Positions 1,998 to 16,974 of a stretch of 64,000 nucleotides of DNA are shown here, one piece after another. Location of the stretch: contig OX597837.1 in assembly GCA_951406725.2 (NCBI GenBank), positions 496,001 through 560,000 on the forward strand, read 5' to 3'. This DNA is from Octopus vulgaris (lineage: Eukaryota). How positions within the stretch are numbered: the stretch's first letter is position 1; each line of letters begins with the position of its first letter. A program made the position numbers and the translations under genes. Below the pieces are notes generated by a model. That model was not told where the DNA came from and made no database searches. It saw only the letters and a program-made list of their open reading frames with translations.

Positions 1998-2267
1998 AGA
2001 GACAGAGAGAGACAGAGAGAGACAGAGAGAGAGAGAGACAGATGCATGAATGTATAATCAAACATACGATCAAATATATTTAAATATCATGAAATCATAT
2101 ACATATATACTCAAAAACTTGATATCATATCTATATCCCTATATATACACACATATGTGTGTATATATAACGGGAAGCTTTATGAAAATAGACAAAAGAC
2201 GAAGGCAGGTGGAATACAAACAAACAATTGTATTAGTATGGCGCTCAGGAAATATAAATAAAACAAG

Positions 2268-2304
2268 TTTTTAACGTTTCGAGCCTACGCTCTTCAACAG
2301 AAAG
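2268..2304 (-). ncRNA. Minimal type I HHR-like motif, core CUGUUGA (A6U)
   Basis: Minus strand: cttt CTGTTGA a GAGC gtag GCTC GAAA CGTT aaa; palindromic ACGT stem III. Confidence 0.55.
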
Positions 2305-2564
2305 ATACACAGAGAAGAAACACAGAAAGGAGGAGAGAAAAAAATGCGTGCAGAGGCTAGCGAATCAACATGGCGATCTGATTTCGGCCAGAAGTCAAAG
2401 ATCAAACGTGAGACGCAAGAGCGAAATTAGGGGAGATAATAGGCTTAAATGACCTCGCTCCAACATAAGAGTGTGTGTGTGTGTATGAGAGTATTAGTGC
2501 GTATGAGAGGTGTGAACGTGTGTATGTATATATGATGTGAAGTGTAAAGTCGTATGGTGTAGTG

Positions 2565-3000
2565 TAGAGAGAGGAGATGAGGGAAGAGGGGGGAGGTAAG
2601 GGGGAGAGATGAGGGGAGAGAGGGGAGGGTGAGGGTGAGGGGGGAGAAAGAAAGGGGAGAAGAGGGGAGAAGGAAAGGGGAGAAGAGGAGGGGGAAGGGA
2701 GGGGGGGAGAAGGAAGGAGAGGTGAAGAGGAGGGGAGAGAAGGGGGGAAGGAAGGAGAGGAGAATAGGAGGGGAGAGGAGGAGGGAGGAGAGAGGGTGAG
2801 GAGGAGAGAGAGAGAGAAGGGGAGTGAGGGAGCAGAGAGAAAGAGGGAAGGGGAAGAGGGAAGAAGGAGGGAGGGAGAAAGAGGGAAGAGGAGTAGGGGT
2901 GAAAGGATGAAGGACTGAAGAGAAGTAGGGGTCGGGGGGGAGGTTAGATGAGGAGGGGGGAGAGTTGAGACCAAATGGCGTATAAGAGGGAAGAGAGAAG
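2565..3000. repeat. Polypurine G/A-rich low-complexity tract inside the PLE fragment
   Basis: Almost exclusively G and A on the + strand, with many G runs. Confidence 0.9.
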
Positions 3001-3294
3001 ATTAATTCCTGTTCACGGCGCAAACGGGAATCCGGATGGCCTCTGTGCAAGGACAAACCGAACACAGACAGGTGTTGCAAGGAGTGACCGGTGGAGCGGA
3101 AATGGCGTGAGACCCGTGTGACCTACATATATATATATATCATATATATATAATATATGTATGTATACGTATATATATATGCACATCACACCTTGCATGT
3201 AAAGTTTATAATTTATCTTGTTACGCTGCTATTATACATACTTACATACAAACATATGTACACATATATATATATATATGTATATATATATGTC

Positions 3295-3333
<39 letters not shown>

Positions 3334-3445
3334 TCGTTTTGTAAGATTCTTGATATATATATATATTGTAGTTTCTCCTTTAAAACTAATTATATATGTG
3401 TGTATATATATGTATATATATATATATATATATATACATACATAC

Positions 3446-3483
<38 letters not shown>

Positions 3484-3620
3484 ATGCATGCATGTACATC
3501 ATTTCTTGCACGTAAAGTTTACAGTTTATCTTGTTACGCTGGTATTATACATAACTTAACGTGCGTGTAAACATATATGTATAGATGTAAGTATCTATAC
3601 ATACATACACACATACATAT

Positions 3621-3828
3621 AATGTTATATTTCGGAATGGTCATTTTTCTCCAAATAAACACATCCACTCTATATTCGATCTTCATCCCACCTTTTTTCT
3701 ATTCACCTCATGTCCATTGTTCGAAAATCTTTCGTCTCACATCTTTGACCTCTTCAGTGGACCCTTCCGTCCACGTTTGCCCTCCTGTTCCATTTAAGAT
3801 TCTAAGATTCCCCCCACCATCTCCCCCC

Positions 3829-3830
<2 letters not shown>
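3621..3830 (-). mobile_element. Short PLE-like remnant with degenerate HHR (3712-3762); same family as 41500-41917
   Basis: Minus strand: gtcca CTGAAGA g GTC...GAC GAAA...tggac, followed about 70 nt later by atgaccattccgaaatataaca, which also occurs at 41893-41914. Confidence 0.5.
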
Positions 3831-3863
<33 letters not shown>

Positions 3864-3864
3864 A

Positions 3865-4035
3865 AATAAAATACAAAATGGTACAAAACGCAAAACATCC
3901 GGACAACTAGGTGATACAAAAAGGGACAACGAAACATCTAGATAGACGATACAAAAAAACAAGGACGAGTCATTCGAAGCCTTTTATCCTCAGTCAAGAA
4001 CCGGATAATCCTCGCAATTTCGGCTGTTTTCGTCC
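3865..4035 (-). mobile_element. Non-coding interspersed repeat; same family as 57610-57890
   Basis: Shared blocks in opposite orientation (gatacaaaa/gggacaacgaaac, cattcg, cctcagtc, gcaatttcggctg); begins at a TA repeat. Confidence 0.6.
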
Positions 4036-10780: not shown

Positions 10781-11013
10781 ATTGCCACTCGCCACCGCTT
10801 CCCCATTTATCGCATATATATATATATATATATAAGTAGATGAATTAATTATCCTATGTTTATCGTCAGCATGGAAAATTCGTTTAACCGAAACCTGGGT
10901 AGCAAATTCACGTCAGAAAACACGGTTGAAGCGACCTGTCAAGGGTAGAAACTCCGGGTTCATGTGTAGAAATTTGTGTGTTGTATATGAATAAATGAAA
11001 GAATGGAGTCGAA

Positions 11014-11375
11014 AGGTATTACAATCCAGATACAGTTTTTGTGGCCTTTGAATTGTTCTTAATGTTGTTTGTGATAGTAAGGGAAAAATTTCTGGGTTGG
11101 AAATTTGGGGTTGCATGGCGCTTACCTCCCCTAGTCCGTAAAGAATTTATTTTATGTACAGGGTTGCTGGCACTATTAGAATTGAAATCATTATTCCTAT
11201 TACGGGTATCTTTACTATCTGGAGAAGCAGATGTTGGTTTAGAATGAGCTGGGTCGATGTATGACACTTTCTCCTTATAACCGGCTCTTGTCAAGGCGGC
11301 GTTATAGAAGTCTGCCTTTTGGTTAAAGATGTCGATATTAGCAGATAATTTGGACAGTCTCAGATAATTTGGACA
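11014..11375 (-). pseudogene. Penelope-like RT thumb/linker fragment
   Basis: RLSKLSANIDIFNQKADFYNAALTRAGYKEKVSY matches the PLE post-RT pattern RLSxLSxxxxxF......Y..AL...GY. Confidence 0.6.
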
Positions 11376-11429
11376 TGTAGGCAATCATCGAAATTTTTGT
11401 TTGTCTTGTTGCAGAGAGAGGCTACCTTT

Positions 11430-11511
11430 CTTTCCTGATGAGAAGATTGCATAATGCACCCTTTATTCCTTTGGAATGAAAATATGCTGTCTTCAAAACA
11501 TGTGTCGAGAG
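11430..11511 (+). ncRNA. Type I HHR with long stem II; G12 mutated to A
   Basis: ctttc CTGATGA GAAGA..GCAT...ATGC..TCTTC aAAA CA tg TG TC gagag; all three stems pair; GUC triplet. Confidence 0.6.
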
Positions 11512-11899
11512 TAAAGGAATTTTGTTAACATCTTCGTTCGACTCCATTCTTTCATTTATATATATATATATATAGCCATCTATGTATCATTCTTAATGTA
11601 AATACATTGTAGAAATTTCGTTCAGAGATAATATAACGTATAGACCGCAGCTGGGACAATTTTCCTTTCTCTCTGATATATATTATGCTTCTCGATACTA
11701 CCACAGTAAATTTGCCTTTCAACGATCTATTTATATTTATTTAGATACAAAGATGAGCATTTTAAAAATTTAATACAGGTTGTATTGTATATAATTGAGA
11801 CACATTCTTACATACACACACACACACACATACACACATGCGCGCGCGCCTTTCATATTCACGTTTGCTTTTATGCTAAGTTATAAAAAAACAATTTAA

Positions 11900-12332: not shown

Positions 12333-12403
<71 letters not shown>

Positions 12404-12647
12404 GGAACAAATTTTAAAATAGGATAAAATCTCAATAAGAAATTATCAGGTAGTTAGCGTGAAAAACCTCATAAGAGAAAAAATCTGTAAATTTTTTCAC
12501 TTGAAAATATCTATTTATATTATATAGAGGGCATTATTACACATAGATGCCACACGCTAGGAAGGACTTTTAAAGTCATAACTACCAAAAATAAACAAAT
12601 CGTACCGAATGCAATTCTGGAAGCGAGACATTTAAAAACAGAATTTA

Positions 12648-12711
12648 GTTCCAGATCACCTGTGATTTCGCAATTAACGTATTATCTACGTCTTTTGCTC
12701 TTCAGTGAAAC
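12648..12711 (-). ncRNA. Type I hammerhead ribozyme, canonical core
   Basis: gtttca CTGAAGA GCAA..ACGTA...TACGT..TTGC GAAA TCAC ag GTGA TC tggaac; AUC triplet. Confidence 0.85.
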
Positions 12712-13194
12712 GAATTCAAAATATATCATGAATGAACAAAACCAACATACCAGGCGGAACCAGACAGACAACCGTCGCCTCCATTGCAGCATATGAAAAT
12801 GTTTACCCCTCATATATTTATGTAAATGGCGGGCTTTTTCGAATTGCATTTCGGTGAGAAACGTGCTTCTTCGGAACAAATTTAAAAATAGGATAAAATC
12901 TTAATAAGAAATTATCAGGTAGTTAGCGTGAAAAACCTCATAAGAGAAAAAATCTGTAAATTTTTTCACTAGGAGGGACTTTTATGAGGTTTTTCACGCT
13001 AACTACCTGATAATTTCTTATTAAGATTTTATCCTATTTTTAAATTTGTTCCGAAGAAGAACGTTTCTTACCGAAAAGCAATTCGAAAAAGCCCGCCATT
13101 TACATAAATATATGAGGGGTGAACATTTTCATATGCTACGATATGGTTCCGCCTGGTATGTTGGTTTTGTTCATTCATGATATATTTTGAATTC

Positions 13195-13258
13195 GTTTCA
13201 CTGAAGAGCAAGAGACGTAGATAATACGTTAATTGAGAAATCCCAGGTGATCTGGAAC
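13195..13258 (+). ncRNA. Type I HHR, damaged copy
   Basis: Same motif as 12648-12711, but TTGC>TTGA breaks the stem II closing pair and TCAC>TCCC weakens stem III. Confidence 0.7.
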
Positions 13259-13402
13259 TAAATTCTGTTTTTAAATGTCTCGCTTCCAGAATTGTATTCG
13301 GTACGATTTGTTAATTTTTGGTAGTTATGACTTTAAAAGTCCCTACTAGCGTGTGGCATTTATGTGTAATAATGCCCTCTATATAATATAAATATATATA
13401 TA

Positions 13403-13800
13403 TTACTCTTTAACTCTTTTACTTGTCTCAGTCATTTGACTGCGGCCATGCTGGAGCACCGCCTTTAGTCGAGCAACTCGACCCCGGGACTTATTCTTTT
13501 GTAAGCCCAGAACTTATTCTATCGGTGTCTTTTTGCCGAACCGCTAAGTGACGGGGACGTAAACACACCAGCATCGGTTGTCAAGCAATGCTAGGGGGAC
13601 AAACACACACACATACATATATATATATACATATATACGACAGGCTTCTTTCAGTTTCCGTCTACCAAATCCACTCACAAGGCATTGGTCAGCCCGGGGC
13701 TATAGCAGAAGACACTTGCCCAAGATGCCACGCAGTGGGACTGAACCCGGAAGCATGTGGTTGGTTAGCAAGCTACTTACCACACAGTCACTTCTGCGCC

Positions 13801-13801
<1 letters not shown>
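13403..13801 (-). mobile_element. tRNA-derived SINE family A, full length
   Basis: Colinear with 9246-9750; B-box-like ggttcagtccc on the minus strand. Confidence 0.85.
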
Positions 13802-13834
<33 letters not shown>

Positions 13835-14097
13835 CAATTAAGGACAACTACTTAATAAGGAAAACTTAACAAGAAATTGTCAGGTAGATAGCGTAAAAAC
13901 CTCATAAGAGAAAAAATTTCGAAAATAATTATTTCTTATTGAACATATTAATTTATATATAGAGGGCATTATACATACATGCCAGAAGGCATTATACATA
14001 CATGCCAAACGCTAAGAGGGACAATTAGTCATTTCTACCAAAAATATTACTAATCCCACCGAATGCAATTTTTCAAAGTAAGACATTTAAAAAATAT

Positions 14098-14145
14098 AGA
14101 CCTGTATCACAGTGATTTCATACTTACGTACTCATCAGCAGGCCT
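14098..14145 (-). ncRNA. Type I hammerhead ribozyme (identical copies at 14578-14625 and 15058-15105)
   Basis: aggcctg CTGATGA GTAC gtaa GTAT GAAA TCAC t GTGA TA caggtct. Confidence 0.85.
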
Positions 14146-15287
14146 GAATGCATTATAAATAAACAACGACCCTGCCCCGCTTAAGTCGATCAGCTAACTG
14201 TTCAACATCAACGAAGCACATGGGTGAGTTTACATATATTACATCCGGTCAAATGGCAAACTTTTACGAATTGCATTTCGGGAGAGGAAAAGTTTTTTCG
14301 GAATAAAAATTTAGCAATTAAGGACAACTACTTAATAAGGAAAACTTAACAAGAAATTGTCAGGTAGATAGCGTAAAAACCTCATAAGAGAAAAAATTTC
14401 GAAAATAATTATTTCTTATTGAACATATTAATTTATATATAGAGGGCATTATACATACATGCCAGAAGGCATTATACATACATGCCAAACGCTAAGAGGG
14501 ACAATTAGTCATTTCTACCAAAAATATTACTAATCCCACCGAATGCAATTTTTCAAAGTAAGACATTTAAAAAATATAGACCTGTATCACAGTGATTTCA
14601 TACTTACGTACTCATCAGCAGGCCTGAATGCATTATAAATAAACAACGACCCTGCCCCGCTTAAGTCGATCAGCTAACTGTTCAACATCAACGAAGCACA
14701 TGGGTGAGTTTACATATATTACATCCGGTCAAATGGCAAACTTTTACGAATTGCATTTCGGGAGAGGAAAAGTTTTTTCGGAATAAAAATTTAGCAATTA
14801 AGGACAACTACTTAATAAGGAAAACTTAACAAGAAATTGTCAGGTAGATAGCGTAAAAACCTCATAAGAGAAAAAATTTCGAAAATAATTATTTCTTATT
14901 GAACATATTAATTTATATATAGAGGGCATTATACATACATGCCAGAAGGCATTATACATACATGCCAAACGCTAAGAGGGACAATTAGTCATTTCTACCA
15001 AAAATATTACTAATCCCACCGAATGCAATTTTTCAAAGTAAGACATTTAAAAAATATAGACCTGTATCACAGTGATTTCATACTTACGTACTCATCAGCA
15101 GGCCTGAATGCATTATAAATAAACTTTTATTCCGAAAAAACTTTTCCTCTCCCGAAATGCAATTCGTAAAAGTTTGCCATTTGACCGGATGTAATATATG
15201 TAAACTCACCCATGTGCTTCGTTGATGTTGAACAGTTAGCTGATCGACTTAAGCGGGGCAGGGTCGTTGTTTATTTATAATGCATTC

Positions 15288-15335
15288 AGGCCTGCTGATG
15301 AGTACGTAAGTATGAAATCACTGTGATACAGGTCT
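15288..15335 (+). ncRNA. Type I hammerhead ribozyme (identical copies at 15767-15814, 16247-16294, 16727-16774)
   Basis: 7-bp stem I aggcctg/caggtct, CUGAUGA core, stem II with GUAA tetraloop, GAAA, stem III, AUA triplet; predicted cut after 15328. Confidence 0.85.
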
Positions 15336-16907
15336 ATATTTTTTAAATGTCTTACTTTGAAAAATTGCATTCGGTGGGATTAGTAATATTTTTGGTAGAA
15401 ATGACTAATTGTCCCTCTTAGCGTTTGGCATGTATGTATAATGCCTTCTGGCATGTATGTATAATGCCCTCTATATATAAATTAATATGTTCAATAAGAA
15501 ATAATTATTTTCGAAATTTTTCTCTTATGAGGTTTTTACGCTATCTACCTGACAATTTCTTGTTAAGTTTTCCTTATTAAGTAGTTGTCCTTAATTGCTA
15601 AATTTTTATTCCGAAAAAACTTTTCCTCTCCCGAAATGCAATTCGTAAAAGTTTGCCATTTGACCGGATGTAATATATGTAAACTCACCCATGTGCTTCG
15701 TTGATGTTGAACAGTTAGCTGATCGACTTAAGCGGGGCAGGGTCGTTGTTTATTTATAATGCATTCAGGCCTGCTGATGAGTACGTAAGTATGAAATCAC
15801 TGTGATACAGGTCTATATTTTTTAAATGTCTTACTTTGAAAAATTGCATTCGGTGGGATTAGTAATATTTTTGGTAGAAATGACTAATTGTCCCTCTTAG
15901 CGTTTGGCATGTATGTATAATGCCTTCTGGCATGTATGTATAATGCCCTCTATATATAAATTAATATGTTCAATAAGAAATAATTATTTTCGAAATTTTT
16001 TCTCTTATGAGGTTTTTACGCTATCTACCTGACAATTTCTTGTTAAGTTTTCCTTATTAAGTAGTTGTCCTTAATTGCTAAATTTTTATTCCGAAAAAAC
16101 TTTTCCTCTCCCGAAATGCAATTCGTAAAAGTTTGCCATTTGACCGGATGTAATATATGTAAACTCACCCATGTGCTTCGTTGATGTTGAACAGTTAGCT
16201 GATCGACTTAAGCGGGGCAGGGTCGTTGTTTATTTATAATGCATTCAGGCCTGCTGATGAGTACGTAAGTATGAAATCACTGTGATACAGGTCTATATTT
16301 TTTAAATGTCTTACTTTGAAAAATTGCATTCGGTGGGATTAGTAATATTTTTGGTAGAAATGACTAATTGTCCCTCTTAGCGTTTGGCATGTATGTATAA
16401 TGCCTTCTGGCATGTATGTATAATGCCCTCTATATATAAATTAATATGTTCAATAAGAAATAATTATTTTCGAAATTTTTTCTCTTATGAGGTTTTTACG
16501 CTATCTACCTGACAATTTCTTGTTAAGTTTTCCTTATTAAGTAGTTGTCCTTAATTGCTAAATTTTTATTCCGAAAAAACTTTTCCTCTCCCGAAATGCA
16601 ATTCGTAAAAGTTTGCCATTTGACCGGATGTAATATATGTAAACTCACCCATGTGCTTCGTTGATGTTGAACAGTTAGATGATCGACTTAAGCGGGGCAG
16701 GGTCGTTGTTTATTTATAATGCATTCAGGCCTGCTGATGAGTACGTAAGTATGAAATCACTGTGATACAGGTCTATATTTTTTAAATGTCTTACTTTGAA
16801 AAATTGCATTCGGTGGGATTAGTAATATTTTTGGTAGAAATGACTAATTGTCCCTCTTAGCGTTTGGCATGTATGTATAATGCCTTCTGGCATGTATGTA
16901 TAATGCC

Positions 16908-16974
<67 letters not shown>

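Follow-up and report, generated by a model that had tools for sequence, protein, structure and literature searches.

Covarying hammerhead stems in a multi-subfamily non-coding repeat of Octopus vulgaris, a likely non-LTR retrozyme

Introduction

Within a 64-kb window of the Octopus vulgaris genome (the whole stretch of DNA analysed, 64,000 nucleotides of contig OX597837.1), two neighbouring repeat insertions carry hammerhead motifs whose stems differ in sequence and still pair in both. This raises the question of whether selection has acted on ribozyme structure across subfamilies of one repeat, as a sequence-only reading of the locus had proposed, and of what kind of element carries the ribozyme.

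Architecture of the two insertions

The subfamily A insertion spans 12402-13399 and follows a (TA)n target on its left flank (12333-12401, no strand), in which TRF counts 34.5 TA copies. Sequence comparison resolves it into a full 469-bp unit (12402-12870), whose ribozyme-sense strand is the minus strand; a partial second unit on the same strand (12871-12983), which covers unit positions 1-100, jumps to unit position ~156-168 and meets the next part in a short-overlap join; and an inverted arm on the plus strand (12979-13399), which begins at the short end, passes through the unit junction and has TA at its end. The partial unit is 98% identical to the full unit over 12871-12970, and the inverted arm matches the left arm at 92% identity and lacks 19 nt upstream of its damaged ribozyme; a private variant at 12619 is common to both arms. 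This tandem-plus-inverted layout after (TA)34 is the one described earlier from the letters alone, and the coordinates and sequences given then were correct. A "tail", defined by a census of insertion ends, lies at 12402-12526 on the minus strand between the long end, which in A is usually ~8 nt inside 12402, and the short end, a TA-rich word before GAGGGC, and is seen at one end of inverted insertions only.

An intact-looking type I hammerhead was located at 12648-12711 on the minus strand by descriptor scan, covariation and fold. It reads GTTTCA CTGAAGA GCAA..TTGC GAAA TCAC AG GTGA TC TGGAAC, where GTTTCA/TGGAAC form stem I, GCAA/TTGC with an ACGTA/TACGT extension form stem II and stem III is self-complementary; the cut is predicted after AUC, between 12654 and 12653. 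The second copy, at 13195-13258 on the plus strand, had been called damaged, and two lesions were indeed found, at 13236 in the first stem II pair and at 13243 in stem III. The A insertion has one full unit per arm, and B and other insertions hold 2-32 ribozymes.

The neighbouring subfamily B insertion (13832-16924) is young and consists of 2.7 + 3.7 inverted 480-bp units with seven hammerheads; in both window insertions the long end is on the left and the short end on the right. A descriptor scan of both strands of the window returned eight complete type I hammerheads, one from A (12711-12648) and seven from B, the latter reading AGGCCTG CTGATGA GTAC GTAA GTAT GAAA TCAC T GTGA TA CAGGTCT, so that the differing but pairing stems are as first described. 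The homology claimed for the two units also holds, as they share 65% identity (315/485, E 7e-42), with the minimum across the ribozyme stems.

The two insertions are separated at 13400-13810 by TA runs and an unrelated, putatively SINE-like repeat of very high copy number, which matches 128 of 320 fetched loci and, with a contig depth of ~1e5, is apparently highly transcribed. The sequence-only reading had stressed that both subfamilies landed within about 450 bp of each other. A copy number of 2,154-4,000 would by itself give 0.7-2.6 pairs within 450 bp across the genome without clustering, and the closeness of A and B is therefore compatible with chance even if TA clustering is disregarded; a special cause was rejected, since ~1-3 such pairs would be expected anyway. 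A third Penelope-derived insertion in (TA)n, at ~10814-11590, points to a TA-rich neighbourhood. It is inverted and truncated, belongs to a different Hydra-type family (84-95% identity to the ends of L244, L266 and L268), retains coding remnants on the minus strand and has a hammerhead at ~11430-11512 with AAAA in place of GAAA.

A genome-wide family with many subfamilies

The genome measures 2.8 Gb and is rich in microsatellites. A pattern comprising the hammerhead core and TCAC/GTGA matched 2,154 times genome-wide and its reversed control not once, indicating that the motif is not due to chance; details are drawn from 100 listed of the 2,154 matches. A longer-stem pattern gave 64 further matches, some of them unrelated. 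Exact motifs were matched 78 times for the A type and 328 times for the B type across the genome, and a similarity search with the A unit yielded 46 matches among the best 40 of 3096 candidates. The best B matches are 99-100% identical to the window copies, across chromosomes, whereas the best A matches are 88-98% identical, which makes A the older of the two. Every member sampled consists of units of 460-480 bp that lack an ORF. The earlier count of at least two subfamilies was correct but low: A and B are two of at least ~20 ribozyme haplotypes, and ~20 of these could be placed on a single tree of flank sequence.

Several members stand out individually. An array at G000:C1:64.635-64.66 Mb is a single insertion of 15 kb, in which 31 near-identical 481-bp units and a short inverted arm contain 32 hammerheads. 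At L181 (G000:C1:53.14 Mb), four private variants are common to all units of one arm; two of the four are A-to-G on the ribozyme-sense strand and may reflect fixed RNA edits or nothing more than a variant template. Another old repeat (L297, L301, L304, L307 and L308) contains hammerhead core words, a stem III of ATCACGTGAT and a long stem II; it is unrelated to the A/B family by BLAST and is without clear stem I pairing. A locus at C1:70.53 Mb, where ribozymes lie 2.9 kb apart, was considered as a coding partner and proved to be two separate insertions.

Covariation and the level at which selection acts

To assess covariation, 27 real copies of distinct haplotypes were chosen by hand as representatives, automatic clustering being noisy, and a tree was built from 276 flank columns with the ribozyme excluded. 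Most representatives came from a search pattern that demanded the core and stem III but not the pairing of stems I and II. For stem I, three of the 27 copies have bulges and were left out; the remaining 24 representatives are paired in 144/144 cells against 107.7+-12.2 under a tree-aware null of 2000 simulations, and show 10 joint changes against 1.12+-0.93. Neither value was reached in any simulation (0/2000). Stem I covariation thus exceeds the tree-aware null, and the proposal that selection acts on ribozyme structure between subfamilies is supported, and for more than two of them.

Stem II covariation is weaker in its support than that of stem I. The proximal part is paired in 71/81 cells, a value reached by 182/2000 simulations, and has four joint changes (26/2000). 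Its extension, present in 19 copies, is paired in 91/95 cells after two mis-registered rows were corrected; the null was run on the uncorrected 83/95, which 15/2000 simulations reached, and its three joint changes are not significant (336/2000). Stem III cannot covary. The core and TCAC/GTGA, which had been noted as kept between A and B, are invariant among the representatives, although this is partly built in by the search pattern.

Two further alignments were analysed. In a MAFFT alignment of 21 of the 27 representatives, 87.9% of cells are paired, compared with 77.7% when shuffled and 23-40% when slid, and 62 cells changed on both sides compared with 20.5; 11 pairs change on both sides, a number reached by 25/500 shuffles. 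RNAalifold, applied to 18 longer subfamily copies, recovered the hammerhead unaided together with a predicted long stem enclosing it and a covarying upstream hairpin (12593-12860 on the minus strand in the A unit), with double changes in 17 of 52 pairs of the model.

Paired changes could also arise when short inverted repeats are repaired by template switching, or if selection favoured a hairpin in itself and not catalysis. The hairpin that covaries outside the ribozyme would fit this explanation, as would the persistence of non-canonical first stem II pairs in whole subfamilies and the fact that core invariance in the representatives is imposed by the search pattern. The stem I arms, however, are just 6-7 bp long and 35-50 nt apart, and core position 7 takes all four bases among the 27 representatives (17/7/2/1); by established rules this is the tolerant position of the hammerhead core. 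Moreover, ribozyme copies found by DNA similarity retain ATCAC..GTGAT intact in 26 of 33 cases, the exceptions being different single changes. Taken with these observations, repair or hairpin selection is a very improbable source of the paired changes, and selection on ribozyme structure is the preferred reading.

Such selection does not extend to inserted copies. Similarity and motif searches supplied 22 A copies, in which rare non-CpG changes affect 21/880 positions of the core and stems against 74/5103 of the flank, a difference with Fisher p = 0.056 and with the higher rate on the ribozyme side. Inserted genomic copies are not protected and decay neutrally, which implies that constraint acts on the source lineages only and that the damaged arm at 13195-13258 represents ordinary decay. 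The A/B family accordingly shows constraint on source lineages while its genomic copies decay, and its ~20 hammerhead variants form a well-resolved natural series with phylogenetically independent compensatory changes. Covarying stems are themselves expected of a hammerhead, and the retrozyme class has already been described, so the surprise is limited.

Hammerhead class, fold and transcripts

The motif has the CUGANGA / GAAA / UH core, the three stems and the open stem I of a type I hammerhead. Searched against Rfam at E<=10, 12402-15300 matched none of the hammerhead families, and what it did match was noise from microsatellites and hairpin miRNAs. The first stem II pair varies among the 27 representatives (G-C in 13, A-C in five, U-U in four, A-U in four and G-U in one), suggesting that activity may differ between subfamilies; A-C or U-U replaces G-C in whole subfamilies, including a very common one (L061-L064, L074, L101, L107).

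Folding predictions differ between single motifs and larger units. Isolated motifs have z-scores that are not significant against shuffles, and the minimum-energy fold of the A monomer is a structure other than the hammerhead. When whole units are folded as circles, z-scores are -8.5 (B) and -2.7 (A) against 40 shuffles each. Stem III does not fold as a hairpin in the A or B monomer, where its pair probability is 0.01-0.04, but the stem III word is predicted to pair with itself in a duplex, at -11.2 (A), -10.1 (B) and -6.6 (damaged copy) kcal/mol. This modelling suggests a dimeric double hammerhead between tandem units, which would explain the fixed sequence of stem III. Double hammerheads have a precedent in satellite 2, besides the dimer data for axolotl retrozymes; a literature search for double hammerheads and satellite 2 found no paper. 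For axolotl retrozymes, a double hammerhead is reported in the available text of PMC7229834, and in the available part of a 2026 preprint (10.64898/2026.07.22.740005) 8/9 predicted retrozyme dimers did not cleave.

The A/B family is covered at low depth by contigs from sequencing runs that are guessed to be RNA, none of which is on record as such. Three of these contigs (from X5 and X6 in study P2 and X12 in P5) have their end precisely on the base that follows the predicted cut; one further contig ends 2 nt away, and others run across the site. Contig ends at this position are no more than a weak hint of cleavage, as subfamilies differ in the base found there (A or C) and such a difference is enough to end an assembly contig.

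Insertion ends and candidate enzymes

A census of insertion ends, binned from BLAST, covered 92 rows outside the window, among them one duplicated locus and three split ones. TA-rich sequence was present on at least one side of 84/92 insertions. The 57 non-inverted rows all begin at a fixed point, which is the short one in 33 and the long one in 24, and their stops are scattered. Of 35 inverted rows, 27 combine a long with a short end, none combines like with like and eight have an end outside the bins, making long/short pairing strict in the classifiable inverted cases (27/27). The tail measures ~110-125 nt in both A and B. The insertions show the tandem/inverted layout, the pair of fixed start sites and the one-ended tail of a non-autonomous Penelope-like element, in line with the Penelope "tail at one end" signature described in PMC8557442 and PMC3846280. 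In vitro work on another Penelope-like element (PMC11167929) accounts for this signature by a pair of internal sites at which RT begins, nicking and extension taking place on both DNA strands; the strands did not differ in the site used, and insertion did not require cleavage. Private variants mostly fall within single units (40/50 in B, 31/35 in A), so that single-template copying is barely tested by them.

No RT/GIY-YIG ORF was found in A/B-type units in the 92 insertions, and where RT frames lie near some copies, 6/12 frames tested match RVT_1 and belong to separate elements. An autonomous partner was sought with a GIY-YIG family, a Hydra-type protein, a degenerate motif and longer-stem patterns, which brought several Penelope-like families to light. 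Among 150 fetched Penelope-candidate loci, some of them overlapping or chance matches, none was an autonomous element with an A/B unit and none gave pLTR homology to that unit. The units could instead be solo pLTRs, terminal repeats in truncated form from an autonomous Penelope-like family that escaped the search, since their insertion architecture matches that of autonomous families and a rare coding copy could be missed with 100 listed of 2,154 pattern matches. The head-to-tail unit with its fixed junction and without an ORF in all 92 insertions argues against this, as do young copies that are near-identical across chromosomes and never adjoin a Penelope ORF; a solo pLTR origin is accordingly very unlikely, and a non-autonomous repeat moved in trans is preferred.

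The closest candidate for the enzyme moving this non-autonomous repeat is an intact Hydra-type Penelope-like family (L221-L225) with ORFs of 981-1091 aa, RWK/RWR, DKT, YRDD, CxCX5C, CxxC and CxH motifs and a C-terminal EN. By a motif-based assignment it shows the Hydra-clade features of PMC8557442 section 11, including a hammerhead and a (TA)n target. Pfam gave no match to the full ORFs, and a related EN fragment lies above the GIY-YIG cut-off; a PDB search with the candidate RT gave no match, and the Hydra-type RT has weak similarity (E 0.027) to that of a Neptune-like family. The terminal repeat contains the hammerhead, the two insertion ends lie ~35 and ~155 nt away from the cut, and long is combined with short in 7/7 inverted copies that show both ends. 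The resulting tail of ~115-120 nt is a better match to that of A/B than the ~150 nt of a second Hydra-type family or the ~38 nt of the Neptune-like one. The long end, CTT(A/T)ATTGC (CTTAATTG), is common to 30/53 long ends of the A/B retrozyme family. Beyond these last 9-10 nt, no significant DNA homology was found between A/B and the Hydra-type family, and their tail alignments scored at the level of shuffled sequence (z 0.5-1.3); in addition, the A-type long ends are similar to that of the TA-targeting Neptune-like family. On this evidence, the Hydra-clade family is as probably the mobilising enzyme as not.

The wider Hydra-type family (L221-L240, e.g. G000:C19:23215000-23224900) is young, has its RT and endonuclease separated by a long Asn-rich insert, and returned 16,683 candidates with its endonuclease as query; its stem I covaries (TTTCGG/CCGAAA vs TTTTAG/CTAAAA). 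The Neptune-like family (L141-L147) is likewise young and TA-targeted, with a 781-aa ORF and an upstream open frame of 330-480 aa, and the descriptor found no convincing hammerhead in it. This 781-aa family is the less likely mobiliser: it too ends in (TA)n at two points, but these are ~38 nt apart and give the poorer tail-length fit.

Proposed mode of copying

The A element is an insertion of older date and belongs to a non-coding repeat of many subfamilies whose type I hammerhead covaries. The repeat is probably a non-LTR retrozyme; its RNA is predicted to cut itself, and a Penelope-like enzyme provided in trans likely copies that RNA into (TA)n. In the proposed sequence of events, tandem units would in all likelihood be transcribed, and the hammerhead would probably cut, with the likely help of two copies pairing through the self-complementary stem III. 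Monomers may then be ligated into circles that serve as the template, a step favoured by a smaller margin and proposed because copies run through the cut site and the unit junction. The step held with most assurance is the last, in which a Penelope-like RT/GIY-YIG protein would nick both (TA)n strands, one cDNA would be made from each of two internal sites ~110-125 nt apart, and the cDNAs would join. That this protein is the intact Hydra-clade enzyme, with its tail of similar length, is an evenly balanced proposal.

The same element and the same Penelope-type mobilisation could operate with an uncut multimeric transcript as template, the ribozyme being kept for end processing or for late, protein-assisted cutting and not for circles. 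Copies that read straight through the cut site would suit such a template, as would the several guessed-RNA contigs that span the site, and for the element studied in PMC11167929 the available text describes unprocessed RNA as the main substrate and ribozyme mutants that still insert. The long single-sequence array with its 32 hammerheads and the four L181 variants common to all units of one arm suit repeated passes round one template, and circles are established for mussel and coral retrozymes in the available text of PMC7229834. An uncut template is therefore regarded as rather doubtful, and a circular one is preferred.

A more specific scheme can be put forward only tentatively. In it, A/B retrozymes would be circular-RNA parasites of one specific Hydra-clade enzyme, mimicking its two start sites ~115 nt apart without homology; each nicked strand would obligatorily use a different site, and the ribozyme would be active only as a double hammerhead. 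The last element would explain why stem III is frozen while stems I and II turn over. As the pairing of long and short ends is strict and an intact candidate enzyme is present in the same genome, a partnership between retrozyme and Penelope-like element could be tested by the published in vitro assay.

Comparison with known systems

A specific description of the A/B family was not found in the literature, although the supplements of PMC8557442 or Repbase/Dfam may list it or the Hydra family. The available part of the preprint by Li, Clavereau and Pollet (2026) already argues that retrozymes are non-autonomous Penelope derivatives. Penelope-like insertions, as described in the available texts of PMC8557442, PMC3846280 and PMC11167929, share with A/B the tandem-plus-inverted layout, a tail confined to one end, a pair of RT start sites, insertion into AT-rich or (TA)n DNA and a hammerhead within the repeat. 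A/B differs from them in having no ORF, in a tail of ~110-125 nt, compared with the 30-40 bp described, and in the strictness of its long/short pairing among classifiable cases. Hydra-clade elements (L221-L225; the available text of PMC8557442 section 11) further share the (TA)n target and a minimal palindromic stem III, and the two ends lie a similar distance apart, ~115-120 nt in the Hydra-clade family and ~110-125 nt in A/B; the distance from cut to short end is ~35 nt in the former but ~130-145 nt in the latter.

The closest likeness is to the non-LTR retrozymes of animals. The units of A/B are tandem, non-coding and a few hundred bp long, each with a type I hammerhead, and are dispersed at high copy number with low GC and no coding capacity; low-GC non-coding tandem units with a type I hammerhead are likewise described in the available parts of Cervera and de la Pena (2020, PMC7229834) and of Li, Clavereau and Pollet (2026). 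Those sources also describe thousands of copies in several families, arrangements from monomers to long arrays and a self-paired predicted fold, all as in A/B, and the short stem III suited to dimers recalls amphibian retrozymes. The A/B unit of 460-480 bp, known here from sequence alone, exceeds the 150-450 bp quoted there for animal retrozymes, and fixed long and short ends with inverted arms were not encountered in the available text of either paper. Judged by its sequence features, the A/B family has those of an animal non-LTR retrozyme and would work like one, placing it with a known kind of genomic parasite.
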